From Catajapyx aquilonaris (Eukaryota), in contig JYFJ02003456.1 in assembly GCA_000934665.2 (NCBI GenBank), forward strand, positions 1 to 41,307: DNA of 41,307 nt, written 5' to 3'. The position numbers and the translations under genes are program-made. The notes under the pieces were generated by a model. The model was not told the DNA's origin. It made no database searches and saw only the letters and a list, made by a program, of their open reading frames with translations. This document shows, piece after piece, positions 4,701 through 39,410 of the stretch (positions are counted from its first letter, which is position 1; every line of letters starts with the position of its first letter).

Positions 4701-5786
4701 ACAATATTACCACAGCAGCATCCTCAAGGTTCAGGGTGTCCCATTGGAATCCGTCAGGAAGAGTGAAAGGATCAGGCCGTATCTCCGACACAGTCTTGTC
4801 TGGTTCGATGCATTCATTTGATGTTATATCCTCATCTAAAATGAGGTGCCTCAATTATTAAACTGTCTATCAGAGAGTCGGTAACACACATGCCATGAAA
4901 ATGCATTTCCCTCTCATCTCTGAAATGGGGCAATTACCGTTGCGCATAGCAATTCATGACCCAAGTTCAAGTGGATGACATGTGAATCTGTGACACGCTC
5001 ATTTACCCCAACTCTTCACCTACCTCTTGAACTGAAAACTTGTACAGTACAATGCACCATCCAGTACGATACAATAGCAGTTCAGTAATTTATGATTTCT
5101 GAGCAAATTCAATCTTCAAGAAAAGAGTCTCACCCATTTTGGGCACCGGCTGTGTGTTCCAGAACTGGAATTGTTTCTGCAAGGCCTCCTCAGGAGTCTT
5201 GGCTGGTTTTTGCTTGAGGGTGAGCATCTCCACAGCCTTCTTCAGTTCCTGCATGGACAGGCGAGTGACGCCCTTGTTGCCCTTATTCACTTCCGCACCA
5301 CCCACGTCGTTCTCCGTTGGACCATCTGCTGCCTCTGCACCAGAAGCTGCACCACCCTTCTTTTTCTTGCTCTTCTTCTTCCCACTGTTCGGGGAAAAAA
5401 TTTGCATCAGGTTAAAGGTTACAACTCTTCTTTTTTTACAAAATGCAATAATGTGTCCTAGGGAAGGCATAGTGGTCTGGTGGTTACGCCACTGGCCAGC
5501 CAAGCGGGAGGCCAGGGTACAAATCCCGTCCCCTTCACCTCTGCTTGACCAGGTCTTTTTCCGCTTTTCACTCGACATGCCAGGGCAGAATTGAAGGGTG
5601 GAGTGCAAGAGGGGCATGAGTCAAAGCAACAGACACCTGACTCATGCCCCTCTTGCACTGCACCCTTCAATTGCACTCCCTACTCTGCCCAGGGCTAGGA
5701 GAAAAGGTCTGGTGTATTTCACAAAGTCAGAAATGACTATAATTACAGCGCCCTCCCTTGGGAACCACCCCATCACAGGGTAAATT

Positions 5787-5855
<69 letters not shown>

Positions 5856-12900: not shown

Positions 12901-15900
12901 GGAGCCATGTGTCATCATCGCCACAAGCCGTTTGAAAAAACTATCGCCCTCAATGCGATCGAGTTCCAAGCGAAAGCAAAATGGGTGGCTCTTTTGCACC
13001 TCAAAGAGATGGTGAGGAACCAGCGAGGATGCCAACTTCCTGAGACCTTTCAGTCTTTCAGAGTCCTAAGCATAGTGCTCTGACTTGTCCCACACTCGAA
13101 AGCAAGCTCCTGTGTTGTCCATCTCTGAGGGTCCAGCATGAAGCGTCCAACAGCTCCAAGTGAATCAGGCTGGAGCCGTCTTAGGGCGATGGTGTGGTAG
13201 GGAGGTCACGATCCCCTTTTTGTTTCCCCACCCCCCTCGCGATATGGGCAACATGAATATGCAGATAAAATTGTAATCTCCGGAGCTTCAAAACTCAGCA
13301 AAGGTCATCTCTGGACGTGTTACTGTTTTTGAATAAAAAAATTCACGCCATGACTTATGAAACAACCCACATATAATAAAGTACCATCAAGTGTGTCATA
13401 AAGCTACTCTCGAGTGTGCCTACATTACAACAGACGAGCTACTGTTTCCTATTTGTACCAAGATTATGTGCATTACGATCAGTTTGATAATTTCATAATA
13501 ATGTACAGATGATAGGAAGGGATGATCCCTGGCATCGTTCCACCATGTACACATATTAACTAACTATTTTAGGCAAATATCATGATACCATTATTTTCAT
13601 TTATGGCTTTTATGCAGACCTGCATAAAAGCCATAAATGAAAACAATGGTATCATGATCTGTGGTCATAACTGCTTCCAGCACAAATTTTCAATACAAAT
13701 TTGAATCGCTGCACAATGCATGCATGCTCTCACTTCATTACAAATGCAGCATGTCATGAAACTGTGCTTTATGCTTGTGGGATTACAGCTACAAATACTT
13801 ACGATTGCTGGAATCAAATGAGTCAGCCTTAGAGAGCTGTGAATGTGGGCGTTCTGAAATCATGCTTTCTCTTTTCTGCTTCTCTTGGTCCTTTCTGCTT
13901 TGTCTCACTCCATCAAAGGCCTCCATCCAGTCTTTCTAATGTGCAAAATAACATGGCATTAACCAAAACACCAGGAGAAGGAGGAAGTTGACAACGTGAA
14001 CTTACCTTGCTCTGTGCACTTGAGCTCTGAAAGACTCTTGTGTCGGAAGACAGAATCTTGAAGGCATGCTTCACATGATCAACATCTTTTATGTTGACGA
14101 CAGCCAAACTTTCTAAGCCATAAAGCTTCTCAAATCTGTACCGGTTTGGTCCACCCCTAAAACAAAAGCATCGCAATTTTAGTAATTTCACTGAGTATTA
14201 TTGATACATGTAACATAACAATAATCATATTTATCCACAGTTAGATTTTGTCGTTAAATGAACAAGAATTGTCTTCTCATCTAAATGCGATAAAGTGTGC
14301 ACACCTGCTACCAATCCCCTTGGCAACAAAAAAACAGTCATTGAGAAGGCATCCCCTGACCCTCTGCATGGGAATGTTCTCCACTGCGTCCAGCTCTATG
14401 AGATCCCCATCCTTCACCAAGGTCCTTCCTGGCACCTCCAGTACTACACCACACCCTTCTATCTTCTCTAAGAGAGCCACCAACTTTTTTCGACCTTCAT
14501 TCTCCTCTGGCTCCACCTTCCTGTCTCTCTCCTGAACACCATTCATCTCATGCATTGTCTCCCCTTGGAGGGAGGTGTCAAGAAGAGATGTCAGAAGTGT
14601 CTTCTGCTCCGTCAGCATGTGAGACAGTTGGTACATCTCACTCTCCAGGTCTGGAAGAGTTATTCCATGGTCACATGTGGTAAAATTAAAAACCTTGCAA
14701 GAACATAGCATGGTAAATCGCATTTCCTGGGCATAATGGGTTGAACCAATAAGTCACAATCTTCCTAATCACTCATAATAAAATTATAAATATCACATGC
14801 TCTTTTAAATAATTCCTACTCTATGTAAGCTTGCAGCTGGTTTTATAAAAATTTACCGTGCAACTAATAATGACTTTTAATTGTCCCAGTTATCATTGGT
14901 TCTCACAGTAACTTCCTCCTAGACAGAAAATAGTAATAAAAGGAGTGATTTTTAGAGCCCAACTTGTCAACTGAAGGCTGCACATGCACCTTTATGTATG
15001 CAGGTAATTATGAAACATTAATAATGACATAATCACACTATAATAATGGATACCCCGTGCTAGGCCTCCTTGGGCCTCTTAGGGGATCATCTTTTATTTA
15101 ACCAACTTTAATCATTGCCTGCGCTGTGATGGATTTTGATAGCAGGAGGAAACAGAAGAACCCCGAGAAAACCCATGCGAACACGGAGAGAACCCATCGA
15201 AACTCCCACATAAGAATCCTCCGTCCGACCCGGGGATCGAACTCGGGACCTTAGAGGTGGAAGGCTGCGGCGCTAACCACTCCACCACCGTGTCACCCAT
15301 GACATAATCATACAAGCTTACATGAAATCTCCTTGGCAGCCTCAATAAACTGCATGTAGTTTTGGTACACATTCTTTTTGAGCTGGCTGTTGGTCTCCTC
15401 TGCTAGAGAGCGAATCTTCTGCCTTTGTTCCTGTAAGTCCCTGCTGTTCATGTTCTGCAGGGTCAGCTCCTTCACATCTGCAAAATATAACACCCTTTAC
15501 ATGGCTGAACAAATAATATGCCAGTGTGTTCCACTGAGATAATGATATTCAAAAGTATGTCATGAAATAACCCAGACAGGTGTGCGTGCCTCATGCTGGT
15601 TTGGCCCTTTTGTATTTAAAATATACTGTACCAGTGTTATATTGATTTACTTCAAAATGCTCAGTCCCTAGATCTAACAGGTAGTTTTGCATCCAATGAA
15701 AGTGTTTCAGACTGCTGCTGCATGATAAAATGTGGGACATATGGGAAGTAGGGGAAAATATGCAGTGTCCAATTTCACATTATGAAATTTATAAGACCCC
15801 TCTCAGGTCAGGGTACACCAGTGCTTCCCAAATTGTGGGTCGCGACTCCATTTGGGGGTCGTGAAAATAATATTTGGGGTCGTGAGGAAAGGTAACAAAT

Positions 15901-21000: not shown

Positions 21001-24000
21001 CTGTTTGTGGACGCGATTTTTATTCTCCTTAGGTAATGATGGGCTGCCTTAGTGCATTATTCATGATGTTGCTTCACATGTGTCAGGAATTTGATAAGAA
21101 CGGCCTGTTTCTTCAGGAATTATTGGAACCCCCTTGCATAAAAATATTTCACTTTTACCCCATGGTGTAACTTCAGATTGGGGAAGGCCAGTACTATAGA
21201 AACAACACAACTGAGTATAGTAGGTATTACGGCAGAGATGTGGCAGTATCGGTGAGACTGTTCATAATGCAAAGTCAAAGAATGTTGACAAACACCTTCT
21301 AAAGTGGTTTATTTCAACAGCAGGGACCAGCCACGCAAACGGACCCGGAACAACGAGATCTTCAGCTCCCTGAGTTCTTCAGCTATCATGCGTGTTCCTA
21401 AGCGCACGCTTGACCATTCAGGAGCCTCATCTTCTGCATCCTCCTCAGCCTGCAGCACACCACTTCCACCATCCCTTGGAAAGCACCTCAGGCGGGCTTC
21501 TCCGTTTTCTTCAGCTCCAGGATCTGCCACACATTCCATCTGCAATGGAGAGGATGGAGGGAAGGAGCACACACTGCAGCGAGATCAAAAGTGGTCAGCA
21601 AGATCTACTCCAAAAAGGACTCCACCATTGGTGCATGGAGGAAGAGCAGAGCTGCAGCGTGACCTAGAACGGGACAGACAGAGGTTGGCAACCATGCTGG
21701 CCGCATTTGGAAGTGGCAGTGAGGACAAGGGAGATGCCAAAACTGAGGGCCAGACGGCAGCAATGGCCAGCCTCAGCACTGAAACCAATGTGGTCACATC
21801 CAATGCAACCCCAATATTGGCTGTATCACCCAACACTGTGTCCAAGGTTGGTGAGAATAAGTCAGCGCCTGTCTCAACAGCTGCTACATTGTTGGCAACC
21901 CAGCCAACACCCACTGCATCACCATCATCACTGCTAGTGTCACTGTCAAGTCCCGGTACCCAGGCACCTGGCAGTAGCATTTCCAACTTGCAAACTGGGG
22001 TGTCCAACAATGATTTTCCAAAGGTTGCACTTCTGCCAACTACATCTTCCGTTGGATTTCCACATTTCCAGAGTGTACCAACAACATCTGCTGATGGTTC
22101 ACCAAAGGTGACGATGGCACCAGCAGCACTTGCAGGTGGATTCCATAAACTTGCAACACCACCAGTGACGTCTCTCAACACAGTTCTGCAGTTTGGGTCT
22201 GCCCCTGCTACAGTAACTACACCGTCAACTGCAACGACTAGTACATTAGGTCTACCCACCAGTATCTTCAGCTTTGGGGCACAACAACCAAGTACTACAA
22301 CAGTTGTGGCAGGAACACAACAAGCAGCAGAGGTGACAACTTCCACAAATGTGTCACTGTTGTCAGTGCCCGCAACTGCTGTGTCATCATTAGGCTCACA
22401 GATAGCAACAAGCCAGCAGCAACCAGCTCCAGCATGGAGTTATAAGGGGCCAGAACAGACCACCACTGCGGCTGTGTCACAGCCATTTGGTTTTGGTTCA
22501 CAAATGACAACAGCCAATTCCTCTGCTGCATCACAATCAGATGCGACGTCAGCATTAGGGGGGCATCAGCTTGCACCTGCCAGTACCACAACTCTACAAC
22601 TATCAGGTTTTGGTTCACCTTCAAGCCTGAAACAGTCAGCAGCACCAATATTTTCCTTTGGCTCCAAGCAAACCACTGTGGAAACAACTGCACCTGCCTC
22701 CCAGCAGTTGCCATCCACTCCCACCTTAAGCTTTGGCCAGCCATCTTCGGGTTTGGGGATGCTGAAGTCAACTTCAAATACTGTTACCCCTCAGCAACCT
22801 GTCTCGTCACTTTTTGGAACACAGCCCTTGACTACCTCAAGCTCTGCTCCTTCATCAATCTTTGCCTTTGGTGCGCAACAATCCACAGCTGCCAGCAGTA
22901 CACCTGCTGCCACATCATTTGGCTCACAGCAATTAGCTCTTTCCAGTTCACAACCCCTGCCGACATTTGGCTCACAACACTCGGCTGTGATTTCAACCAG
23001 CTCACAACCAGCATCTATATTTGGGTCTCAGCCAGTTTCTGCCGTCACTTCACAGCCTGCACTCACATTCGGGTCCCAGCCAGGTGCTGCTGCCACTTCA
23101 CAGCCAGCAGCTACATTTAGCTCGCAACAATTGGGAGCTGGAGGAATGCAACCTACACCAGCATTTGGGTCGCAGCAGATGAGCACTGGAGCTTTGCAGA
23201 CTTTGCCATCGTTTGGCTCACAGTTTACTCCTGGTGGAGGCACACAGAATCTGTTTGGTTCTCAACAGTTGGGTGTGACTAGCACTGCAACCTTGCAACA
23301 ATCCATGCCAACATTTGGTGCACCACAGTCAACTTCTGCTTCCACCCAGCCTGGGAGCATCTTCTCTTTTGGTGCGCAATCAATGGCAGCGACAACCGCC
23401 ACCACTCAACAGCAGCAGCCAAGCTCAATTTTCACCTTTGGCTCTCAACAAACTTCTGCCACAACAACCATCTCCCAGGCACAGCAGCAGCCCTCTTCAA
23501 TCTTTAGCTTTGGCTCGCAGAATTCAGCTGCACCCTCCTTTCCATACGGCTCCACCCCTCAGCCAGCCACGACATTGCCATTTGGTGCTACACAGCCAAC
23601 ATCAGTAGCACCATTTGGGTCGACGCAGCCAACTCCAGCAGCGTCAATGCCATTTGGGTCAACACCATCTTCATCAATGACACTGTTTGGGTCAATGCAG
23701 CCAGCAGTAGCAACAACAACAGCAGCAGCAATGACATTTGGATCGACACAGACTCCACAATCATTTGGATCGACACAGGCACCACCAACATTTGGTGCCT
23801 CTCAACAATCGCTGCTGCCAACAGCACAGTCCAGCTTCAACTTCACACCCAACAATGGAACTGCAACAACCATGTCATCCTTGTTCTCTTTTGGTACCGC
23901 AGCACCAAGCACAGCAACAGCAGCTAAGCAGCCAGCAATGGGGAGCATGTTCCAGTCCAACAACAACTCTGCAAACAATTCCAGCTTGTTTGCATTTGGT

Positions 24001-24336
24001 GCGCCTAAGAGCACAGCAACGGAAGCAGCACCACCCAATGTCAATCCCTTTGGAAACAACAACTCATTCTCCTTCCCATCTGGTCCTGCAACCACTGCAT
24101 CCACTTTCCCTTTTACAACAATGAGCACTGCAACAACGACAATGTTCAGCAGTCAGTCAAGTGGCCCAAGTGGACTGTTCACATTTGGGTCAAGCATGCC
24201 AAGCACAACAGCCACTTCCAAGTTCAATTTCACGCCTACCAACACACAGCTTGGTGGTGGTGGTGGTGGTGGATTCAACTTCAATGCCGCTGCACCAAGC
24301 AGCAATACTTTTGGTGGCATGGCAAACACACAGCAG

Positions 24337-24368
<32 letters not shown>

Positions 24369-24498
24369 ACAGCAAGGAATGTTCGCCTTTGGTGGCGCCA
24401 AGCAAAATTCTGCAGGGTTCAACTTTACAAGCCCAGCAGCCAAATCAGGCTTTCCAAACGCAAACCCAGGAGTGTTTACATTCGGAGCCAGCAGTTGA
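18002..24498 (+). CDS. POM121: FG-repeat nucleoporin, POM121-like; 3 exons, about 1203 aa (1272 aa if the in-frame ATG at 17795 is used)
   Basis: join(18002..18240,20794..20988,21321..24498); both introns are phase 2, GT-AG. The last exon is 3.2 kb and Ser/Thr/Ala/Gln-rich with about 35 FG dipeptides (xSIFSFG, PTFGSQ types). N-terminal blocks LGLFPVVRLN, TVRLASP, DVIHALQ, KR-x-RKRTR and RNNEIFSSLSSS resemble, in the same order, vertebrate POM121 blocks recalled from memory (LGVLPTVCWN, TVRIAPP, ETVLSALK, NLS, RNAITSSYSS). The FG-nucleoporin call is firm; POM121 orthology is inferred. Confidence 0.8.
18401..18724. mobile_element. Tigger/pogo-like MITE
   Basis: TA|CAGTAGAACCC ... GGGTTCTACTG|TA with internal GATTATCCGA-type subterminal repeats. 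Confidence 0.85.
19126..19306. mobile_element. Young hairpin-type MITE with about 73-bp arms and a CAG target duplication (Harbinger-like)
   Basis: GACCTGTATACTGGACCCCGACGTCT...GCGTGACGTCAAAATGACGTA and its near-perfect reverse complement; flanked by CAG on both sides. Confidence 0.85.
19604..20282. mobile_element. Tc1/mariner (maT/rosa-type) internally deleted fold-back element
   Basis: TA|CAGGGTA ... TACCCTG|TA with long degenerate inverted arms. The plus strand retains the transposase C-terminus (PPISPYLTQIDFF similar to PPRSPDLTPLDFF; VTPDM; ATNGAHIE). Confidence 0.82.
24331..24375 (+). repeat. Coding (CAG/CAA)15 polyglutamine tract; nearby (GGT)n polyglycine at 24253-24273
   Basis: Read directly from the sequence; in frame in the nucleoporin. 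Confidence 0.95.
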
Positions 24499-25995
24499 AT
24501 TTTTTTTACAATGATTTTTCTCTTTTTTTGAGTCCTTTGACCTGTGAAATTTACCTTGGTCAGCTGTTTTATGTTTGATTCGATTTTTGTACCCATGTAA
24601 AAATAATCAATCATTGTTGACTAGTAAATCGATAACATGTTTTGAATCAAAATGGTGTGCTGATTTCCAACATCCATCAGCATGGAGAGGAAGATTTTGA
24701 AGTACTTTGTTTATGATGAAGCCTTGATTCAATTGAATTTTACAGTCAAATGAAATTAATTGGTCAGAATATATTCCATGTGACGTGAATTACATGTTGA
24801 CAGCTGCTACATTTTTCTGTAAGCTAGTGAAAATATACATCTTCCCATTTCTTTAGGTATGTGCTTGTTATGATGCATCTCCGGAACAAATTTTTGGATT
24901 TTTTTAAAAGTACTTTACTGGTATGCTTTATTTATATTAACTTCTTGAATAGTCATTTACATTTACAGGGAAACCCAGTTGCAAAACTGCTGGTTCCTAA
25001 CATTCCTACTAGGCAGTTCCACGATTAGTCAACAGTATAATTCCACATGAGAGGGAAAAAGGTGCTGCCATGGAGGTAGTTCTCAACACAATGCCTGAGT
25101 TTGTTCCCTTCACTAAAAAATATAGTTCAACTGCTTATATCAGATGTTTTTATTTTTCATAAAATACGTAATATACAGTACATTTTAATCTGTAGGGTGG
25201 ATGGAACAGTTGCAATTTTTATTTTTTGGAATGTCATGTCAGAAAATGTTTGAGACTGGTGAGACTTGATTGCACTTGGGAGGGCTCAATTTGTACGTAT
25301 ACATATTCTCAGGAATGTTGCAATACAGACGGCACATGCCTCTGCTCTCAAGCAACCTGTATTTTAATAATAATTATGAATGTCACGTTCAGGCACATTC
25401 TCCAAGATGTCTGATCCACAAACACTTAATTAAACTACCATGTTGTGTGGTACTGGTACTTCATTTACTTTATAGCGATTTTCTCTTTACAGTCGTAACT
25501 GATACATCACCCACTGTATAGCCAGGTATGATTGAACACTTCAAAAGATATAACCAAATTCCAGATGCAAACACTACAGTGGCTCTCACAAATTGATTCT
25601 TTTTTGGACATCCAATTTCTGGGCATCATATGTTACAATAACAGTCCCTCCAAAAATATTTTGACCCATCCCCACCTGAAAGTGATGACTGCAATATTAA
25701 TGGCCCATTCACATAGTCACTTACTTTTTTTTAAACAGTGGCTTCAGCTGCTCCACTTCCATCAGTCGCATAGCAGACACCAGCGTCTTTTTGATTTCTT
25801 GACTGAAAATCCTTGGAGCTAACATTTACTGCCAGTTTTTGAAAATCAATGATGGCTGCAGCAAATCACAACCCAGCTGACATTCAAATTCTTAGGAGAA
25901 TTGCCTAGTCACATCGGCAGGCAGTGGCCACTCCAGCCAGTGTTGAGACCCATGGTTGAGACTATTCGCCAATAGACACTCCTGTTGCCAGATAT

Positions 25996-26057
25996 TTAAT
26001 TTTTCAATTTAATTTCAATTTATTAATACCCTGTTGGGCTGTCTGCCCTTTCAGGGG
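25996..26057 (-). mobile_element. 62-bp 5'-truncated retroposon tail insertion
   Basis: Flanked by a perfect 14-bp direct repeat CTGTTGCCAGATAT (25982-25995 and 26058-26071); contains the stem-loop CCCTG-AAA-GGGC-AGACA-GCCC-AA-CAGGG and an A-rich tail. Confidence 0.8.
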
Positions 26058-26723
26058 CTGTTGCCAGATATGATTCTCCAAGAACTACAGAGTCCAATAT
26101 TGGTTCCTGATTGCATATTGAGGTAACTTCCTCCATGAGAATAGGCCATAAAAACACCTTTTTTAAAAGTCATGGCCAAGCATGGCTGCCAAGGGATGTT
26201 GCAAGGTGTTTTAAAATTAATTAGGAAATAACTTCTGAGTGCATAATGTTTTATTTTAAAAAATCAAACACCTCTTATAATCTCCCCTTGGATGGTCAGC
26301 TGAGGCCAGATTTACTTTTTTCATGCATACCTATTAAAGAAAATCAAAGAATATGTACTCTAAGGATAGGAATCCTTTATTGCTCTAACAAAAAGCACAC
26401 ACAAAGTTCTACATACTACTAAGCTTACTTTTTAAAAAAGGAAGACAAAAAGCTACCTTTGTTTACAATGAAACATACACCTTCACAACCCCCTGCACAT
26501 TTTATTTCAATATGCAGTAAAAAAAACTTTGTACTAATGTTAAAAGCTTACTCATTGCTTCTAACTTTCTCTACACACACAAAAAGAATCATGCTACAAA
26601 AGCATATCATATGCTTTTAAAACTAGGCACTTCTCAAGTACACTACACTAAAAGACACAAAAAAGATACAAAGATACAAAAAACCCTTGAAGGGATATAA
26701 AACAGTATAAAAACAATAAAATG

Positions 26724-29620
26724 TCACACCACTGCTCCATCTCTCAAGATGCATATCCCGTCCTGGCAAGCCTGGCACGCATCAGGCTTGTGCGGCTTCA
26801 TGGGCTTCCCTGGGCGACGCTGTTTGAGAACTGGCTGCCTCTCCTTTCCGTAGAACCTTTGAGCAACCTTATTCGAGAGGTTCTGTACGACCTGGAAAAT
26901 AGATTGATTAGTCAAAAATGTAATTTGCAACATGTTGGGACTTCATCGCCAACATCAAATACATCAATCATAAAATAAGGTTACACACCTCACGTGAATG
27001 AGTGATTAAAAGGTGCAAAATAGAGCTAACAAAAACCAATTCTCACATGAAAGGCATAGCATCACTGCAAGGGGGTAACCAGTAACCACTCCCCCAAAAA
27101 GTGTACACCAGTTCCTGGAACTAGGTCGTTCCACCCGGTTCCAAGCCGGTTCCACAGGGACCATGCACACAGGTTCCACGAAGTGGTTACCCCCTCGCAT
27201 CACTGCAATGTTGACGTGCAAGTTCAGTAACATCTTGGTGACATGCAGAAAGTTGAAGAATTGAAACCGTCCACAGAGGCTATGCCTATAACCCAAAAGC
27301 CATGTAGCAACACACATGGGATGCTTTATACAGGCTGATTGGAAAACATGACACGAGCAGGACACCATTTTGTAAGTGCCGTGCCACTTCCTCCTAATCA
27401 TCCATAAAATGGGATAAATGCAACCAAAAAATATTTATATGACTGAAACAGGAGAGGAAAAGTGCCAAAAATTTCCATATCACGACAAATGACCTTTCAA
27501 GTCATATGTTTTCACTAAAATGCCAAAGATTGTTTTAATTTACAATGGTGTATTCCTTCTGTGGTTAACATTCTCATAATAATCAAGTTTTCCCAACCAT
27601 TCAGTTCCACACTAGTTCAACTTTCAACACCTGGCACAACTATTAGCTTTTATCCATACCCATAAAAAACACTTCTTCTGCCAACATCTATCATGCCAAG
27701 CTACCATAAAAACCAATATGTTCTCAAAGATTTGACAATAATTACTGAATGCATGTCACACTTATGAACAAACTGTAACAAGACTATTTAAAGCCACTTG
27801 TACATCAACAGTACTTCCTTTTCAGGCTATTTATGAGTAGCTGTGATGAAGTTCAACCTTGTCTTCTGGAACAAAGGGAGAGATGATTGTGGCTCATTAA
27901 CGCAATCTTCTACCTACTGCAGAAAATATCGTCACCCAAAGTACAGTAGTTACAAAGCCAATTGTACGATATCCCCAGAACCAGGAGAACTGCTGTAGCC
28001 AGTCAAACACCCCCCCATGGTAACATACACTCATTTTGAAAACTGCTGTTGCTTTCCCCAACAACGAATTGGCAAGTGTGAATTGAAAAGACATATTCAT
28101 TGTAACAAAACCTACCTTGTGGACCTCCTCAGGATACCACATGGGTGTCTGGAACTCAGGCTTGTTGCAAGACAGGCATTTCTGCCCGTAGAGCTTGAAT
28201 CTAATGGTTCCCACGTTGCGCCTGAGCTCTATCCAGAAATTGGCACGCCCTTTCATGGATGTCCAGCCATGGCCACAATGCTCACAGAGAAACCTCACTT
28301 TGGCTGCATCCGTAAACTGCAGCCCATACCCGTGATCATACACTGGCACGAGGCTCCAAGTCCCATCGAATGCAGCAAAGAACGACTGGAAGCACAGGGT
28401 CCAGACGTCCTCCAGGCCACTACACAAACAAGAAATATGTGTGTTTTTAAAAAATCTTACCAACTAATCTGCATCAAGTACCAGCAAAATATATATATAT
28501 ATATATATATTTAAATCGATACAGTTCCTCTCTTCACTTCCAGTCTACACTTTGTGACTCGTCTTTCCCACTACTGTCACGCATTTTCACTGCTAGTTTG
28601 TCGACTTGCCGAACTTGACCAAAAATCATCTTCGAATAGAACTTCCGACTGTCTGTTGCACAATCGGCAGTTTCCCCCAACAATTGAGTTGGCGCAACTT
28701 GCCCTTGGTCGGGTGAGAAAATGAGGTCTGTCATACGGTCAAGGGGTAAATCACACTCGTCAAGTCGGTTGTACGGTATAAGGAGCCGCCAACTCCCACC
28801 AAGTCCGTTGTACGCTCAACTGACCAGTGATTTACCCCAAGGTTGCATATTCAATTTCGGTAATTTTCACTCATTTCCGTAAGTCATCATCAGCAACAAC
28901 GTAACGCATCACGAATCATAGAATTACGGCAAGAGCGAATGTAACATGCGAGAATATGCCTACATGGTATGACACACGCAAAATTAACTCAATTCAAAGC
29001 ACCGAACACGATCCAGCCACAACGCCACTCACATTTTGTCAACATTCACCTACTATTACGTGCTGTTACTCACCCAGCATCGAAACATTGCGATTACTCC
29101 AAGCAGACTATGGGCAAAGTCAAGGTCTACACTGTCTACACCTAGATTATTATAGGCGACTCCTCTCACTGGTCACTATGCCTGTGCGGGGATCTCCCTA
29201 GATTCCTAGAACATTCGAAATAGAACACCGCGACTGACCCGCTGGCTCCCGGATTTAATGTCACGGATTTTCCTGCACTGCTATCGGTGCCCCGGAACAC
29301 TAGTTTTATAGCACCCTTTTCATCCTACCAGATAAGTACCACGTGCTTTATCGCGATGTAGTAACCACGCGTCAATTCATTCACAGCCTGGCAGGTGTCA
29401 CCTACCCGAATTGGTCACCAGGCTCGATGGACGGAGGGCAGTAGTAGCGTTCTGGTACCGCCGGTTGCGGTACAGACTGGTCGTACGTCGGTGGATCGAC
29501 GTACATGTAGTTGGCATACCAGTTGCAGGGCACAGTGGTCCAAATCGGTGTGTTCTCGTACTGCCCTACTACGGGCACGTATCGCACCACCGGCACGTAC
29601 GAGTAAGGAACCCCCGCCAT
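26724..29620 (-). CDS. zf-3CxxC zinc-finger protein (receptor-transporting protein / RTP-like), about 228 aa short form
   Basis: complement(join(26724..26891,28116..28419,29406..29620)) = 687 nt, phases 2 then 0, GT-AG. Motifs: W...F (DVWTLCFQSFF), RFLCEHCGHGWTS, FKLYGQKCLSC, PMWYPEEV and PHKPDACQACQDGIC, i.e. three CxxC pairs plus His as in the RTP/zf-3CxxC family. The two core exons are certain; the 5' exon is less so. Confidence 0.85.
27068..27197. mobile_element. 130-bp hAT MITE
   Basis: TIRs CAAGGGGGTAACCA / TGGTTACCCCCTCG; perfect 8-bp TSD CATCACTG at 27060-27067 and 27198-27205. Confidence 0.85.
28743..28838. mobile_element. Small MITE
   Basis: TIRs GGGGTAAATCAC / GTGATTTACCCC; TSD unclear. 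Confidence 0.6.
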
Positions 29621-31614
29621 ACCCCTTGCGACTCCGAACTGTGAATGAATCCAGGTCCGTATTCGCACTGTATTTCCCCCTATCCGCCCACGCCGTCTTG
29701 TGACGTCGATGATCCCGGGTGGAAGGAGGCGGGTCTGTCTTGTGATAAGCATTGCCGGAAAGGACCCACATGCAACCCCCGCATCTGCTTTAAAAAATGC
29801 GCATGTGTTGTTCGCATACCGGCCGATGAATAGGAACGTCTTTGTGGAAGTGCTCAACATATCGAGATTGACATTTTCATCCGTGGGAAAAGGAACTGTC
29901 TCACGGTGCGGCTTCTCTGAATTTGTCAGCTTGTTCTTGTTGCAGATTATGTACCAACACAATGGGACAAGTCGCTAATCCCTTCTGATCAATGACTGTT
30001 ATTAGTTGTGGCGCCGAACATTGATAGTGCTTTGACAGTACTTTATGCATATGATAAAGTATATAGCAGGTGAATGGATTGCGCTTTCAAGATCTTAATC
30101 AGCGTAAACGGGGTAGCCTATAACCCGTAGATTACTATGTCAACACTGGCTTGCGACACTACAAGTGAACTTTAAGACATTATCTCCTGTGCGCCCAGTA
30201 ATTACATTCGGCACTTTACATTTTCGGGGACAAGTACCAGCCTCTATGAAACTGCATGAAACTATTTAAACGGGTAGTCAAATGTACTACCGGTCTTATG
30301 GAACCTCCCTGCGATATCATGACACATGCGAACCCCTGCTAATGTCAGCCCAACGAGCCATATTTTAATCTGGTTATTGGGGTTGTTTGCTGCCTGCTTC
30401 TGACGCCTGAGTGCCTTATCTTAATTGTCACGTCCCTGGAATTAGCCCTCCCCAAAATGTGGGTTCTCATTTATGTCACCCCCTGATACGCCCAATGTAC
30501 ACAACTCAACCAGTCACTGATTTCCTGGTGCTGCATGCAACCCGATACATGCTGGGGGCTTCCATCCATCAGCCTTCAACCGAAACATTGGGAGGTCAAC
30601 ACTACCCCATTGCCTCCTCATAACTCACCTAACCACCCACAAGGTTATCGTGACCACTGACACAGGTTAATTTAACAATCCTCCCACTTATCATATTTTT
30701 CGGGTCATCAGTGGGGTCAGCACGGATTGAAATCCAGCTCGGATTGTAAGCCCTTCGTGTGAAGGTCATTGCACAAAGCTCGAAGTTACGGGCATCCATA
30801 ATAATAAACATCGGGTGAGTCAACAACTTCCTCCTTTTAAACAACGGCAGGAATTTTAAAATCGTACCTGCCGAGAGAGGCGTGACTTTTCCATCTAGGA
30901 AAGGTGGTTTGCACAGGTGAGTAGGCGGTGGTGGAACAGTGAGAAGCAGCTGAATGGGGGTAGGAGGTGCTTAGGGTGAACCCTCCTGCCGGGGTCTACC
31001 CCCAGCCCTCCCAATTATGTCACCATTTTGTAGGGGCCGCGCATGCATATGATTTGAATTGCTCAATCTCGCAGGACACTTCCCCCTGCCTATTTCTACG
31101 CGGCAGGGGATCCCACAAATTCCTAACCGTGGCCTTGGTGCTTTCTTTTTTTACTATAGAGCCATGAATCACATAAATGGCTTTGAAATCAGTGAACTGC
31201 TGGCGGGGAGCAAGTAATATAATTTTACTGCACCCTCACCTTATGTGAGGGTCAATATCAATGTCACAATGTTGCGGGTCTCCATGTCCACAGATTGCCA
31301 GAATTGACACTACATGTCATTATGTTGGCAGAGAAACTCACAGGCCCATGATTTTAATTCAAGCAGGGAAACAAGAAATTAAATTGTTGGGCAACCAGAA
31401 GGATCTAAAAGAGCTCAAGAGTTCATATCCACCAAAAAAGGCTTCTATAATTAGACAAATGGCACCGATAGTTGCGATGACTCATCGGTGCAAGGGCCGC
31501 GGACACCACCGAAAATTACAATTAGTGGTCTCAGCATCCTGAAGTCCCCATCACAAATTTGGTTCATGTCATTCGAATCCAAATTGTTCAGGGATTCATG
31601 AAACATGCAACATA

Positions 31615-31699
31615 TGCGGGAGTCACCCATGTATGCACGTAATATTGGTGATCTGGCAAAAATCACCAATATCACTTGCATACATGAGTGACTCCCGCA
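31615..31699. repeat. 85-nt hairpin with 38-bp arms and a 9-nt loop
   Basis: TGCGGGAGTCACCCATGTATGCACGTAATATTGGTGAT versus its reverse complement at 31662-31699; three differences. Confidence 0.92.
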
Positions 31700-31900
31700 G
31701 CACCTCAATTTGCCTGACCCAATGCATACATCTCGCAAAAAATGGAAGGAAGCTGGTCACGCGCATTTGTTTGTTCCCCGCAGGAATATGACCAAAATTT
31801 CATTGTCTGTAGGCATTGATCATTTGATGCTATACAATGCACTGTACTAAATTAATATCAAACACGCACCTGCAATCATATAGTACGTAGTTATACTGTA

Positions 31901-32396
31901 CCTTACTCAAATCCCTTGGTTTACGCGCACCCCTCACTTCACGAGTTTGTGCGGCGTAACTCGTACGAAGCGTATGGGTCAGTGATAACCTCCGTGTAAA
32001 AACGTGCGTTAAAATGTGAGAGAAACGCATGTGCGAAATTTCGACGATCTTCTCCCTTAGTGCAACAGGCAACCCTCTTCTCGCCATGTTTCTTCGCTAT
32101 GATGAGTCATGGGCAGCGGTTGCCAAGATGGGCTCAAAACGTCAGAATCATTGGAGTAGTTTGCTTGCAAAGACACATGGACACAGAGCTCATTTCATGT
32201 GACAGGGGGGTGCGCGTAATTTTACTTCCCTTGTGTATTGGGTGACCCATCATATGCACGTATCGTGACCCTTGTATACGAACCGAATCAAATCATTGGC
32301 ACGAGTTTCATTTCTCACATTTTAACGCATGTTTTTACGCGGAGGTTATCACTCGCGAACTGAGGGTGGGCGTAAACCAATGGGATTTGGGTAAGG
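31901..32396. mobile_element. MITE with TA target duplication and long inverted arms
   Basis: TA|CCTTACTCAAATCCC ... GGGATTTGGGTAAGG|TA; internal inverted block AGTGATAACCTCCG..TAAAAAC..GCGTTAAAATGTGAGA. Confidence 0.8.
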
Positions 32397-33184
32397 TATA
32401 TTGGAACAGGCCTTGCCAATTCCATGCACATGCCAGTAAGTTCGATATTTTTCTCGGAATCAAAAATTGTTCACCCTCCCAAATCTTTCAGGTCACGTGT
32501 CAGCTATGCTGTGACATTTTTTGAACAATGAACAACTTGTGCTGTACACAAGCTTACAATAGTGGAAATTCTTTTGCACTTACAGCATCAATGCACAAAA
32601 ACCCAACCTAATTTTTTGTATTTTCTTAGCTAGTTTTAGTACCATGAGTGCATGTGTCAGTGATCATGCTTGTGCCAATCCTAACTCCTCAAGTAGGCCT
32701 ATCATTAGTAGAATGCCACAAAAAATTTTATGACCTTTTTTTTCATACACACTGCTCGAAATAACATGCATTTAACTAGTATTGAATACACAGTACATAA
32801 CCCAGCCAAACAGCCTTAGTTACTTCAGTATCTTCCCGGCACCAAAACAATCACTATGCAAAATACCAGTGAGTTGTCCATCAAAAGTTGAGCTATGAAC
32901 TAGCGATTGGACAATCAGGTGAATCTCCTGCATTTAGAGGTTGAATCCCTCATGAAAAACATGAATTTTGACTTAATCATGTGATACTGGCAAATTGTGG
33001 AGAGCCCAGCCAGTGCTGATCAATAGAACATGAGCAGTTTGAAAGGACATTGCCTGAGTCATCTACAGCTCTTTAAATGACTTTATCCCCAGACTGATCT
33101 GGTGGCCACTAAACCATGCTACAGTAGGTTAAATTGATGGCAACCATCCCAATGGTAATGCAACATGCATATTAAAGTACTTAC

Positions 33185-33501
33185 CATCCTATCTCGTTGT
33201 TATTTGCGTCGGCTGTAGTAGGCTTAAAGATTCTGACGTATTCCAAATTTGGTCGATCAGCTTCTAAGCTTGGTGGCAAGGTGTTCACCATGGGTGGTTG
33301 CGGCATCATGGGTGGTTCTAGCGTCATGGGTAGCTGCATCACTGGCATTGCAACTGGTGGAGGAGACAGTGGGTAGGCCCATTCCCATTCATTATGTGCT
33401 GGGGGCGCCCACAGGGGAACAGGGGTACCCACAGGTGACCGTGGAGGTGGAGGTGGAGAAGCTAGATACGCTGGATAGGCCACCAGGAGATCGTTGTGAT
33501 G
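33185..33501 (-). CDS. Candidate alternative proline-rich coding exon of the zf-3CxxC gene
   Basis: Open frame (HHNDLLVAYPAYLASPPPPPRSP...NNNEIG) bounded by a tttcag acceptor (phase 0) and a TG|gtaagt donor (phase 2). The donor phase matches the acceptor at 28419. Confidence 0.6.
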
Positions 33502-33829
33502 CTGAAATAGTGGTGAAAACACACCAGCCATTACTAATTGACCATTGACCATCAAACATTACACTCATTATAGAATATTACGCTGTAATTGACACACAAT
33601 GGTTAACAAGGAAAAATACAACTTAACTCGAACCTAACTTTAAAACACTGATTAGTGATTATACTGATTAATGACAACAGGTGTCTTCTATTTCTGCATT
33701 GAGGGGGGGAAAGCTGTAAAAGATGGCTGGTTGGTTGGGTGGACCAGATGGGTGCTGAAGACACTGATATTTCACGTCACATCCCTCATTCACTCATTTC
33801 ATCTTTCACAGTCACCTTAGTACGTACAT

Positions 33830-34610
33830 TGGACATACATGGATCGCTTAATCAAAGCTGTCCAAAGTGACCTTCCACCGCGCCAAGCGGCTGGACGGGT
33901 ACTTTCCGGTGTGAGGAAACTTTAGTCCCATGTGATCTGTCCAGATCACGACATGCGAGTACTCCAAGTACTACGCATGTTTCTTCAGGGCGAAAATAAT
34001 CGCCAAGCGCTCTCCATCTGTGGTCGAATAATTATTGAACTCACATGGTCCGGACAACAACCGACTTGCGTACGACAGCGGGACCATTCGACCCTGCTGG
34101 TCATCCTCCTGCATCAGGACAACCCGACCTCCGATTGACTGGCGTCACGCGTCACAAAAGAGGGCAAATGGTTTATCTAACTGCGGCACGGCCAATTCGG
34201 TACAGTACATCATCAGGGCATTCCTAATGTCCTCAAACTCACTACTATGCACGTCTGCCCATTCAAAGACTGCATCCTGCTTCAGTAACTTGTACAAGTT
34301 GCGTGCGCGACATGTCAAGTGGTCAACAATGTGATCCCGGAAATAATTGACATACCCTAAGAACCGCATAAGCGACTTCTTGTCCGTAGGAACTCTGTAA
34401 TTCACCAACGGCTCCGTCTTGGCAGGGTCTGGCTTCACAAAACCATTGTCAATCACAAATCCGAGACGCTTGATTGTTGCAGTGCACAGCTGCGACTTTT
34501 GCCCATGCAAATGCATTCCAGCCCTTGCTAGGGTGGACAACACTTCATTCACGTGCCGCAAATGCGTCTCAAAGTCTGGGCTGTAAACCACCAAGTCATC
34601 TGCATGCCCA
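33830..34610 (-). mobile_element. Decayed Ty3/gypsy LTR retrotransposon pol fragment (RT C-terminal half plus RNase H)
   Basis: ADDLVVYS..FETHLRHVNEVL, LGFVI, KPDPAK, RFLGYVNYFR, FEW, KPFALFCDA, then past stop codons PLSYASRLL, NYSTTDGERLAIIFALKK, WTDH and SRLARW. Confidence 0.92.
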
Positions 34611-35325
34611 ACCAACCCAAATTAAATTTAGTTTCAGTCACCTAACCCGTCATACATCGCAACATTAATCCCATGGGGCAGCCCTAAACTTTCCCCATTC
34701 ACAAGCCTTCCTCCCCTTAAATCAGAATGGACAGGCCCAATACAAATTTCTATGAAACATTATTGGCACTATCATGCATTCAAAGTGCATCAGCAATATC
34801 CCAGCAAAATATTGTACGTATGCCTCATGAAATCAATACATTGCATAGACGCATCCCTGAAGAAATTCTTATACTGATCCCATACATTCAACTTGAGCAA
34901 GGTTATTTTTTTGCACCAATCAAGTTCAGTCCAAAATGCAAATAATCCTCATTTACCTGGCTTGGTCATGAACTGAATACATGAGCCTGTGTAATTCTAG
35001 GCTACAGTTAATTCATCAAGAGAATAGTACTGATGTCACAGACCTTGAAGTGTTCTTTGTCTGTTTCATTGGTGGCCTTTTGTTTCCCTGCATTGTCAGA
35101 TTAACCCACTGGTTGCATGAACTGTACCAGAACTCCAGAAGCACGTTAAAAAAAACTGTTCTGCAAAACCATGATGCAATACGAGTGGCAAAAGCAACTT
35201 CGGTAGCTGCATAACTCTTCACTGTTGATATTTGGGGTCATTTTTTGATAATGAAATATTTTTGGTGTACGGTAATTAGACAGCACAGAGAAAACTGAAC
35301 CTCCTCCACTTTTGATCAACATGTA

Positions 35326-35542
35326 CCCCCGCGAGCATAAAGATGGCGACGGCAGGCCCTTTTTTGACCTTTCTTTATCCGACTAAAATTAATGAACTAA
35401 GTTATATTTTGAACCGAGTTAGTTGCTTCAGGCGTGTGTTCGTATATTTATGACAGTATATTTGATACCGTAATTGCTGAGATTGACAGAGCAGCCTGCC
35501 GAAGGTGAGGGCCGGCCGTCTCCATCTTTATGCTCGCGGGTG
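35326..35542. mobile_element. Tc1-like MITE
   Basis: TA|CCCCCGCGAGCATAAAGATGGCGACGGC ... GCCGTCTCCATCTTTATGCTCGCGGGTG|TA. Confidence 0.85.
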
Positions 35543-37451
35543 TACATATCATGCATACTTCCAACCCATTTTCACAAACTTACCTTCTGATAAACTATGT
35601 ATTAATGGCAAAATTTGGTGCCAGATAATTCAACAGAGAGAGGCAATCAAGCGAAACTTGAGCATATATCATTTAGACGGCCTGGTGAAATTCGACAAAG
35701 CAGCGGGGCATTGTACCGAACAAATGTAACGAGACTCGTCCCTCAATCGAAAGTGCTTGTACAGTACCTGTGGAGAGGTCTTCATAGTGAAGCGGTAGTC
35801 AACCATGGTGTCACTATAGGCAGGCCTCGAGGCAATCTGTGTCGGCCGGGGATGTATACAGAGATGGAGGCGGCACGTCTACACTGCACGACGGACGAGC
35901 AACGACAAGAAGCTGCCCGCTGGGGATGTGGGGTAATGCGGGGGCAAGGGGGCGTGTGAAAGCGGGAGGCTCCGAGGTGGGTGAATCCGTGAATCGACGA
36001 AATAGAAAAGCGCCATCGCACAAGCCAGGATGCCAAATCGACAAATTACAAGGGGGGACAAAACTACATTTCTTGCTGCATGCCTGTTGGTGGAGACAAC
36101 CATTGTTATCTATAGGCAATGCTCAGATTAGGCGCTTATTGGGAGTGTTTTTCACAATAATGGCCATTGGACATGGAGGATGGAGCAGTTTAGCGTGATA
36201 AAAGTGGATTTTCTCATTTTTGGTTACTTGTTTGATGGGTCAGAGTAGCAACGCAGTCTGAATATCACAAAAAAGAGGCAAACTTGGGCCGAGGATAGTG
36301 CACCTTTGGCAACTGTTTGGCACGGACGAATGACGTCATGGTTGGCATATCCGCTCCCGTCGGTTGCATTACCGACAACTCTGGCACTTTTCAATACTAC
36401 CGTAACTGTAAGTTATTTCAGGGCCCATCCATTCAGACCTTACACGTAATTGACGGATTGCACAATATTCCAACACGGCTCAAGATTCGGACTGCATTTC
36501 CGCTCGGATGAATAATCCTCCAGACCGCCACCCAACAGCCCAGGATATCAACCCCCCCTCCTCGCCGACGGACTATTTTAATGAGGGGGAACGCGCGAAA
36601 AGGCCCTGGGCGGGATTGGGTGGGNGGGTGGGTGGGTGGAGAAGGGTTTCCATAATCGTGAAATGGACAAGTGTTGCGGCCAGATTTTAACACTCACAGT
36701 CAGATAGATAACACGGCAATGCAAAATTGGACAGGCGCCAATATGGGCTTCCAGCGTTGCGAGGGGATGGCACATGGCAGGGGATGCAATATGGCTGGGA
36801 GTCGCTATAGCCAGGCCTAATTTCAATACTTTTTTCCATCCCTCCGACCACCCCCGTTTTAGTGCGTCCATATAATACAGTAGGCCTACTGTATAATATT
36901 AATGTGAAACTCGGTTCTGTTCGAAATTCCAGTGCCCTATTTCAAAAATTCACATTCGCAATTCGTTGCGTACCACAGCTACGTTTATTGCGTTAAAAAG
37001 TGCGTCTTGCGGGTGCACTTCATCTTCGGAAATGCAGCGCCGCGCTGCCTGACAACGAATAATGTCAGGATTGGACGCCATTGCTCCACATTAGCCCAGC
37101 TTCTGGCTGCAGTGGCGCGGGGCCGGCCGACACCCCTCGCCGCTAATTGCGCAGCCGGGCGCAGCAATGATTGGGGGACGTAACGACCCGGACGGGGAAG
37201 GAGGCCCCTCCAATCCAGATTTTGGCGCAACGACTTATGGACCTAATGACTTGCAGATACGTACAATATCCTGTACCATATTATTCTTGTAAGACGGCGC
37301 ATTTTTTTGTATTTCCGCCGCCCAACTGGCGCACCCTCGGCCAAATAACCCGGGCAATACCGTACGGGTGCTGCGTCATCACAGCGTACAAGTGCACATA
37401 ATATGTAACAAGAGTCGTCCCTCAACCGAACGTGCAAGTCCCTAACATTAC

Positions 37452-37776
37452 CTGATTCCTCATGACGTACTGAGGCATTTCGGGCATGGCGAAGGCCGCG
37501 GGAGGCGGTGATGCTCCCATATCGTGAGGCGGCGGCGGCGGTATGTCTATCTGCGTCGGCGAGGGGACAAGCACAGGTGGCGGGCGTCGCACCTCCTGCA
37601 AGATGTGAAAAAGGGGGTGTTGAATGGGCAGATAAGGTGGCCAGGTGGGTGGGTGGCGTGATTTCCTCACGCCAAGCACCTGACCACCTTGATTATTATT
37701 GGTGCTTTTGTGAATTGAGTCACGGTTGGAATTGGTTGGCATACCCGCTCCGGTCCGTTCTATGCGCACCGACAAC
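37452..37776 (-). CDS. Candidate upstream proline-rich exon of the zf-3CxxC gene (ATG at 37742)
   Basis: Open frame MPTNSNRD...PPPPPHDMGASPPPAAFAMPEMPQYVMRNQ ending at CAG|gtaatg (phase 0), compatible with the phase-0 acceptors at 33501 and 29638; tacag acceptor immediately before 37776. Confidence 0.45.
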
Positions 37777-37895
37777 CTGTACAGTCACGACCAGTGTCCA
37801 ATGCTATTTCACAGTCAATACACTACTACTGATTATTATCCGTGCATGGCCAAAGTAAAGAAAATAAATTAAAGTCAGAAAAAAATGTCAATATA

Positions 37896-39410
37896 CAGGG
37901 TGTATCAGAGTCACGGCCCACGGGTCAAGCGCGCGCGAGGGGGTGAGGAAAAATCGTAGGTGGCGATAACCCCGGTCAGTTTTATAAAATAATTAGAAAT
38001 AAGGGAGTAATCGATTTTTGATTACGGCAATGCGTGATGTCACGTTCATTCCGTTCGAACCGAGAGGCGCGGAAAGGCGAGTACTGTGCGTACAGCGGCT
38101 CTCTCGCCTTCCCACGCAGAGCATGGGGCCTGGCCTGGACCTCGGCAACCCCTCTTCGCGACCTGCCCATGCAACGGTGCACCGAGAAATGGCGGAAGAT
38201 GTCGAGCACCGATGTCTCTGTACAGCCAGGAATGACAGCACGCATACCGGGTAGGTAGACGTCATCCTCATCGAAAATCGCGAAAAAGGTTTCTTGCCGT
38301 GGACAGACTGCTGCGTGAGGCCGGTACCGGCCGATACATTGCGAGGCAGGCGAGATACGTCAGGTACGTACAGTAGTACAGTGTGTTGTACGCGCCTGTA
38401 CTGTAGTACAGCACTGCACTGGCTGGATAAGGATAATGCCTACAGTAGTATACGGTACTGTAACAGTATTGTGTCGCTCAATGCACCTCGGACCGCACGT
38501 ACAGTACCATGGCAATGGAGGAAGACGTTCTGGACATGGTAACCATGGACCCATCGATCAGCACCCGTGAAGTTGGTATGCGTACTGTCAGTACTCATAC
38601 CGTAACTACAACAAATCCTGGAACTGGCGCGCGCCCATTCGCTCGGATGCTAGCTGTCATCGGTGTCATGGATGGTCCTTCACACATTGTAGGAATGAAT
38701 GCTGTGCACTCTACAACCGACTTCACAGGTGCTGATCGATGGGTCCATCGTCCATGGCTACCATGCCCAGAACGTCTTCCTCCATTGCCATATATGGTAT
38801 GTGCGGTCCGAGGTGCATTGAGCGGTACAATACTGTTACAGTACCGTATACTACTGTAGACATTATCCTTATCCAGCCAGTGCAGTGCTGTACTACAGTA
38901 CAGGCGGACAACACACTGTACTACTGTACGTACCCGACGTATCTCGCCTGCCTCGCAATGTACCGGCCGGTACCGGCCTCACGCAGCAGTCTGTCCACCG
39001 CAAGAATAAACCTTTTTCGCGATTTTTCAATGAGGATGACGCAAGGGATGACGTCTGGTATGCGTGCTGTCATTCCTGCCTGTACAGAGACATCGGTGCT
39101 CGACATCCTCCGCCATTTCCTGGTGCACCGTTGCATGGGCAGATCGCGAAGAGGGGTCGCCGAGGCCCGAGTACGCCCGAGGTCCAGGCCAAGCCCCATG
39201 CTTTTATTTATTTGCGTGGGAAGGCGGGAGAGCGTGAGAGCACCTTGTTCAGCCTTTCCGCGCCTCTCAGTTCGAGTTGCCGTAATCAAAAATCGATTAC
39301 TCCCTTATTTCTAATTGTTTTATAAAACTGACTGGGGTTATCGTCAGCTACGATTTTTCCCCACCCCCTTGCGCGCGCTTGACACGTGACCGTGACTCTG
39401 ATACACCCTA
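37896..39410. mobile_element. 1.5-kb Tc1/mariner-derived fold-back element with about 680-bp inverted arms
   Basis: TA|CAGGGTGTATCAGAGTCACGG ... CCGTGACTCTGATACACCCTA|TA. Arms are about 37896-38572 and 38722-39410. Each arm ends in a transposase N-terminal remnant (PRTART..MEEDVLDMVTMDPSISTREV, similar to the HTH region of maT/rosa-type transposases). Confidence 0.92.

Follow-up and report, generated by a model that had tools for sequence, protein, structure and literature searches.

The window analyzed here is the whole 41,307-nucleotide (nt) stretch of contig JYFJ02003456.1 from Catajapyx aquilonaris (assembly GCA_000934665.2). Its minus strand carries a real gene for a soluble protein of the zf-3CxxC type that resembles the receptor-transporting proteins (RTPs). 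Our analysis indicates that a constant two-exon core, exons C and D, is probably served by alternative promoters, a distal one that opens with exon E0' followed by exon A and a proximal one that opens with exon B, rather than by mutually exclusive splicing of cassette exons. The distal form was observed as a spliced transcript, while we infer the second promoter and the B isoform, which were not seen in spliced form.

Contigs of one public run of unrecorded kind, retrieved with exon A as the query, were aligned to positions 24600-37900. One contig (1,198 nt; depth, 13) matched 26382-26889, 28114-28419, and 33185-33501, plus 66 letters from 35768, with no mismatches. Its three junctions (35768>33501, 33185>28419, and 28116>26891) all skip GT..AG introns. 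Among the 8 of 30 pieces listed, the introns were without cover except at repeats, and because cover was otherwise confined to exons, the contig set behaves like a transcriptome. The 33185>28419 junction, proposed in the initial annotation, was found in spliced form, and exon A (33185..33501, minus strand, 317 nt, phase 0 to 2, AG/GT) is thus a true exon, used and joined to the core. It is a Pro-rich internal exon, spliced on both sides, with an acceptor of 7.2 bits and a donor of 8.0 bits (leave-one-out). These scores come from a splice model trained within the window on 12 acceptors and 12 donors, drawn from three introns of the RTP-like gene and nine introns of a neighboring N-myristoyltransferase (NMT) gene, the latter checked by an open frame of 526 amino acids (aa). 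In this run, the upstream partner of exon A is the exon that ends at 35768 (E0') and not the exon at 37452-37776 that had been named as its feeder. Together, E0', A, C, and D form an open frame of 275 aa. Exon B and positions 37452-37776 had zero depth, which in a single contig set of depth 13, chosen for holding A, says nothing of their absence.

Exon C (28116..28419, minus strand, 304 nt, phase 2 to 0) was covered and joined on both sides. It encodes the first helix of the core and two CxxC motifs and by itself matches Pfam PF13695 (Zn_ribbon_3CxxC) at 46.6 bits against a gathering cutoff of 23 (E = 5e-12), in agreement with the domain originally assigned. Exon D (26382..26891, minus strand), the last exon, is joined to exon C across a GT..AG intron and adds the third CxxC, a stop codon at 26724-26726, and a 3' untranslated region to ~26382. 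It was covered over 26382-26889 without mismatch, and the translation and the spliced contig place its start at 26891. The core contains three CxxC pairs (C45/C48, C81/C84, and C140/C143) as well as H135 and C148. No hydrophobic or transmembrane helix was found in the protein (maximum 19-residue hydropathy, 1.11), consistent with the soluble protein that had been predicted, and an Rfam scan gave no matches. A representative search returned 224 homologs at E <= 0.001, the best ~50% identical. Identity of the core was ~47 to 56% to the best homolog matches and 47% to shrimp, and 3CxxC homologs were clear across arthropods, molluscs, annelids, amphioxus, and one tunicate. In the tree, crustacean core branches were long and those of molluscs short, and Daphnia and decapods had additional paralogs, a pattern that fits either relaxed constraint or conflict.

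A scripted check agreed that A (317 nt) and B (233 nt) both run from phase 0 to phase 2 between AG and GT, and that either alone can be read without a stop into the exon at 28419, whereas both together (through the 29638 acceptor) or neither leads to stops. An in-frame combination of A and B through another acceptor was rejected, the best phase-2 AG scoring only 0.7 bits. The phase match had been offered as evidence for the pair. However, 26 open phase 0>2 AG..GT pairs of 60 to 400 nt that reach the acceptor score of B occur in 28420-35767 (7.3 kb), so that phase alone is weak evidence. The two exons are unrelated in sequence, as first described, and we rejected the idea that they are ancient duplicates: 940 of 2,000 shuffles scored as well, their ungapped ends scored -21, and BLASTP gave an E value of 0.39. 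The description of both as Pro/Tyr-rich suits B (17% Pro, 13% Tyr) but only in part A, which has 25% Pro and only 4% Tyr.

Exon B (29406..29638, minus strand, 233 nt, open from phase 0 to 2, AG/GT) is a candidate alternative N-terminal module that ends in a conserved 14-residue motif. Its donor at 29406 is firm (6.2 bits). The cag acceptor, previously treated as a fixed 5' boundary, scores 2.7 bits and is equaled by 87 of the 413 AGs in 28500-35760, and at this chance level the boundary is not fixed. The frame is open back to 29974, adding 112 codons upstream (29639-29974), and such an open frame of 190 codons was reached in 4 of 1,000 base shuffles, which were not conditioned on a coding function of B. 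In-frame ATGs lie at 29620, 29752, and 29860. A start at 29752 would give a tail of ~116 residues, and decapod B-type tails have 117 to 126. Exon B is probably a first coding exon.

The end of exon B was compared with homologs in a test anchored at the junction, in which its last 15 residues were scored without gaps (BLOSUM62) against the 79 homologs with enough upstream sequence. It scored 55 to 64 against six of them (Penaeus, Petrolisthes, and Amphibalanus, all decapod or barnacle) and at most 5 against the other 73, and none of 20,000 shuffles reached the motif score. The shrimp counterpart of the terminal motif is YYVPPSVEPGDPYG, identical to that of B at 10 of 14 positions at the exon end. 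The core, by comparison, is only 47% identical to that of shrimp, and this contrast points toward selection on B. Macrobrachium and three Daphnia versions also passed the anchored test (0 to 2 of 20,000 shuffles), while the Daphnia A-type end failed it (18,121 of 20,000). A further search found the B-type motif in Cherax, Scylla, Panulirus, Chionoecetes, Procambarus, and krill, and among the records fetched it was confined to crustacean or unnamed ones. On these comparisons, exon B is very likely real despite having no cover in the run.

Database models of relatives hold the same arrangement. In Penaeus chinensis LOC125027200, isoforms X1 to X3 (XP_047472083/84/85) lie on one contig and have an identical 163-aa core; X2 has the B-type tail, and X1 and X3 have a different exon in common, preceded by a start of 97 or 2 residues, which we liken to E0 or E0' over A. 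Daphnia pulex LOC124210076 (XP_046464339/41) and D. pulicaria (XP_046656779/81) likewise set X1/X2 against an X3 of the B type, with no difference in the 168-aa core. In Amphibalanus, two adjacent models (FJT64_004449/004450), one of the B type and the other long and Pro-rich, have cores identical at 100 of 100 residues, the Pro-rich part being also annotated as a neighboring gene on the same contig. Beyond crustaceans, Dreissena isoforms X1 and X2 carry two other tails on a shared 159-aa core, both mollusc tail types recur (in eight and seven fetched proteins), and two amphioxus proteins have cores identical at 159 of 159 residues and tails that differ likewise. The tails of paired isoforms share only the first Met. 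The models thus point to an old two-start layout shared by shrimp, Daphnia, and barnacle, which is probably useful. The initial annotation had called the locus fast-evolving, but both this layout and the B motif are common to three crustacean classes. The alternative N-termini of bivalves and amphioxus join very close to this junction (one codon further in), by shared ancestry or convergence. B itself had no likeness to the mollusc tails (482 and 490 of 1,000 shuffles). The acidic alternative tail of Cherax may be a model error, and a Petrolisthes model that fuses a tRNA m1A58 methyltransferase to a B-type RTP-like protein is likely a gene-model fusion.

The distribution of CpG also distinguishes exon B. 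The observed-to-expected CpG ratio (o/e) was 1.14 for B, 0.95 for E0 (the exon at 37452), 0.91 for E0', and 0.94 for the NMT first exon, compared with 0.12 to 0.70 for the other 16 exons or stretches (exon A, 0.51). In this genome, gene bodies are CpG depleted (0.2 to 0.5) and 5' ends are not, with values of 0.8 to 1.0 at the NMT start and at 17 to 18 kb. Around B lies a CpG-undepleted block (28500..30250) with an o/e of 0.92 to 1.11 in 500-nt windows, against 0.18 to 0.37 around A. We regard this block as a candidate internal promoter, for which the CpG content is supporting evidence only.

Because B has its own ATG and first-exon CpG content, and because the isoforms of relatives differ from Met1, the simplest model starts B from a proximal promoter and E0' with A from a distal one. 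Transcripts from the distal promoter run from the short E0' through the Pro-rich A to the core, the 275-aa form that was observed. Those from the proximal promoter, located in the long intron within the CpG-rich block, would start in B and join the core directly, giving a protein of 228 aa or longer. A transcript started at B could not hold A, and distal transcripts would skip B since it lacks a good acceptor; with separate starts and a weak B acceptor, no dedicated splicing device would be needed to keep the two tails apart. The earlier proposal of swappable low-complexity N-termini therefore stands insofar as both cannot be included at once, but the mechanism, given the relatives and the CpG pattern, is probably a choice of first exons rather than of cassettes.

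Several observations weigh against the two-promoter model. Exon B is missing from the only run. The isoforms of the relatives are automated database models, compared as proteins, and the pair is not annotated everywhere: in Scylla, Portunus, Procambarus, and Macrobrachium, every isoform retrieved has the B-type start. A is unlike the A-type tails of shrimp and Daphnia, so that homology is demonstrated for B and the junction alone. Orthology of A to those tails was rejected with 667 of 2,000 shuffles for shrimp, 351 of 2,000 for Daphnia, and 14 of 1,000 for barnacle, the last being marginal and driven by Pro. The Catajapyx core sits on a long, unplaced branch of the tree. Transposons give CpG-rich peaks here too, and probably account for some peaks elsewhere. 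Finally, the splice model is small, and three true NMT acceptors score below the 2.7 bits of B, so the B acceptor could work.

This last point bears on the best-surviving alternative, in which A and B are cassette-type mutually exclusive exons, either spliced from a shared upstream exon (35768 or 37452) or paired as E0' with A and E0 with B. Both upstream donors are in phase 0, A and B each have a phase-0 AG, all four combinations of the two donors with the two acceptors are open, and the acceptor of B scores within the range of true ones. A and B also have the same entry and exit phases, and including both or neither breaks the frame. Yet in all four same-locus isoform pairs from relatives the N-termini share only Met1, leaving no shared upstream coding sequence. 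B has the CpG content of a first exon, its own ATG, and a chance-level acceptor, and A, 3.5 kb away, is not its duplicate. We consider cassette splicing unlikely. It is more doubtful still that Catajapyx makes only the A form, with B a relic of an ancestral start or too rarely expressed to matter. The contig set does hold the A form alone, but being picked for A it cannot show absence, and a dead exon would not have retained an open frame, a correctly phased 6.2-bit donor, and 10 of 14 motif identities when identity of the core has fallen to 47%. An origin of B or the upstream exons from transposons or from chance frames is very improbable: although a gypsy-type remnant and several inverted-repeat elements lie in the introns and phase-matched pseudo-exons are common, A and E0' are spliced in the contig (which refutes the idea for A), B carries the junction motif of the family (which refutes it for B), and A, B, and E0 have no Pfam match, leaving such an origin conceivable for E0 only.

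Upstream of exon A, the 5' part of the favored two-promoter gene is locally duplicated. Exon E0' (35768..35833, minus strand) comprises the 66 letters joined to A in the contig; its ATG at 35806 stands in a strong start context and opens 13 codons that end in a phase-0 donor. Position 35833 is the contig end, 3 bases short of an acceptor at 35836, and the true 5' end may lie beyond it. E0' belongs to unit U2 (35700..36440, minus strand; repeat families D2 and D4), a tandem duplicate of unit U1 (37380-37920). None of 300 and none of 500 shuffles reached the scores of the DNA alignments between the two units, the likeness includes the first intron bases, and the two copies differ too much from each other to be alleles. 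The B region was not accepted as a further duplicate of U1/U2 (260, 9, 81, and 207 of 300 shuffles). Unit U1 contains exon E0 (37452..37776, minus strand), which is Pro-rich, has an open frame and a phase-0 donor of 8.7 bits, and showed zero depth. Its acceptor at 37776, proposed earlier, scores a weak 1.9 bits compared with 10.4 bits at 37595, and either the 37595 acceptor or a first exon from the ATG at 37742 is likelier. E0 may serve as a third start feeding A, as in shrimp X1 and X3, or be a silent copy; a relation to the long 5' exon of shrimp was rejected (1,137 of 2,000 shuffles). In each unit, an ATG inside a shared motif is followed by a phase-0 GT (36304-36348, 3.8 bits, and 37680-37742, 7.0 bits, minus strand), and short first exons from these positions could join 35836 or 37595 in frame. 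A foldback element of 1.47 kb with long inverted arms (37919-39388; 94 to 96%) lies 143 bases 5' of E0 and may have disrupted the U1 promoter or taken its place. A single N occurs at 36625, inside a CCCA repeat between the duplicated units.

RTP4 has been studied as an antiviral protein that binds RNA, and ZAR1 regulates maternal mRNA, whereas invertebrate RTP-like members are, to our knowledge, essentially unstudied. We also know of no direct arthropod counterpart of interferon induction. The Catajapyx protein has the PF13695 domain above cutoff and the three CxxC pairs of RTP1-4, and its homologs are automatically named "receptor-transporting protein 3/4-like." It lacks the C-terminal transmembrane helix of amniote RTP1-4. 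In this it is like the fish RTPs, and PMC8172065 describes that helix as dispensable for trafficking and antiviral roles and dates the RTP family to jawed vertebrates. RTP4 is ordered as zinc finger, disordered region, and transmembrane helix (PMC12431671, in part), while the disordered part of the Catajapyx protein is N-terminal and swappable, with no membrane anchor. The layout of an N-terminal disordered region and a C-terminal 3CxxC domain is instead that of oocyte ZAR1/ZAR2, which the initial annotation did not consider, although the Catajapyx core shares with RTP-named proteins an additional helix and strand at its N-terminus. The 3CxxC domain is a nucleic acid-binding module in RTP4 (PMC12431671) and an RNA-binding one in ZAR1, where the N-terminal disordered region drives condensate localization (PMC12799850). 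Because both proteins use the domain on RNA, the core would be a soluble, cytoplasmic, zinc-dependent RNA-binding domain, and its swappable disordered tail would, as in ZAR1, set location, condensate behavior, or partners. A table in PMC5752451 (seen in part) lists an amphioxus gene named RTP3 among the top induced, ~1000-fold by poly(I:C).

The terminal motif of B likely packs against or extends the first core helix. A model of the shrimp B-type protein (predicted local distance difference test [pLDDT], 84; predicted template modeling score [pTM], 0.81) is confident in the core and of low confidence at the N-terminus; pLDDT is 75 over motif residues 31-40 and 52 just before, values that would suit a partly packed motif without proving it. 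The top wide-search fold match of the shrimp model is the ZAR1 RNA-binding domain (9jko); it is weak (Z, 4.7; root mean square deviation, 4.6; 90 aligned) and tied with unrelated folds. The best Foldseek match had an E value of 0.28 (probability, 0.51), with none at E = 0.001, and a PDB sequence search that included 9jko gave no matches at E up to 1.

Taken with these comparisons, a soluble RNA-binding protein with a tail switch is favored, acting in either mRNA control or antiviral defense. As the main job of the core, regulation of cellular mRNA is our tentative first choice; antiviral RNA sensing or restriction is possible and ranks second, some other role is unlikely, and that of a receptor chaperone is unlikelier again. 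A broader and rather improbable proposal is that invertebrate RTP-like proteins form an old family of soluble RNA binders whose two-promoter switch, at a fixed junction (crustacean classes, bivalves, and amphioxus), swaps the disordered tail between routine (e.g., germline or neuronal) mRNA control and an infection-induced antiviral form, an unsplit ancestor of the ZAR1-like and RTP4-like jobs. If so, vertebrates would keep these jobs in separate genes and invertebrates in one. If neither isoform is special, this is an ordinary alternative-promoter gene. The crustacean RTP-like genes share with Catajapyx two unrelated N-termini, one core, the same junction, and one tail ending in the motif of B, and they differ in A-type tails that do not align to A and in the local tandem duplication of the distal 5' unit in Catajapyx. 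Conservation of the layout in shrimp, Daphnia, and barnacle allows a cheap, isoform-specific test of immune versus developmental roles in Daphnia or farmed shrimp. Alternative promoters and N-termini are a known device, and the isoforms are already in automated annotations; in the literature searched (mostly without subscription papers), we found no published work on invertebrate RTP-like isoforms, the conserved layout, or the motif. In chelicerate sDscam and clustered protocadherins, variable N-terminal modules with separate promoters likewise feed a constant 3' part (PMC4835542 and PMC9258826, each in part), but there the modules form an array of duplicated folded domains, whereas here only two or three starts, unrelated and disordered, are present.

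The remainder of the window holds three other genes and several repeats. The NMT gene (1718-8132, minus strand) has 10 exons, the open 526-aa frame, and a Pfam NMT_C match. Exo84/EXOC8 (10040-15475, minus strand) has its best match, 53%, to Triops over the exon tested; the database holds no near relative, which suggests a sparsely sampled lineage. On the plus strand, an FG-repeat nucleoporin-like gene (21289-24498), presumably POM121/Nup153-like, has a 3.2-kb open exon with a CAG repeat and a weak match to Pfam Nucleoporin_FG (E = 0.018); its 5' end probably shares the CpG-rich region at 17 to 18 kb with Exo84. Within the RTP-like gene, the intron between E0' and A contains a gypsy-type reverse transcriptase/RNase H remnant with stops (33850-34700, minus strand). 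Short inverted-repeat elements resembling miniature inverted-repeat transposable elements lie in introns at 31600-32400 and 35321-35547, and the element at 35.3 to 35.5 kb was matched by many contigs of the run.

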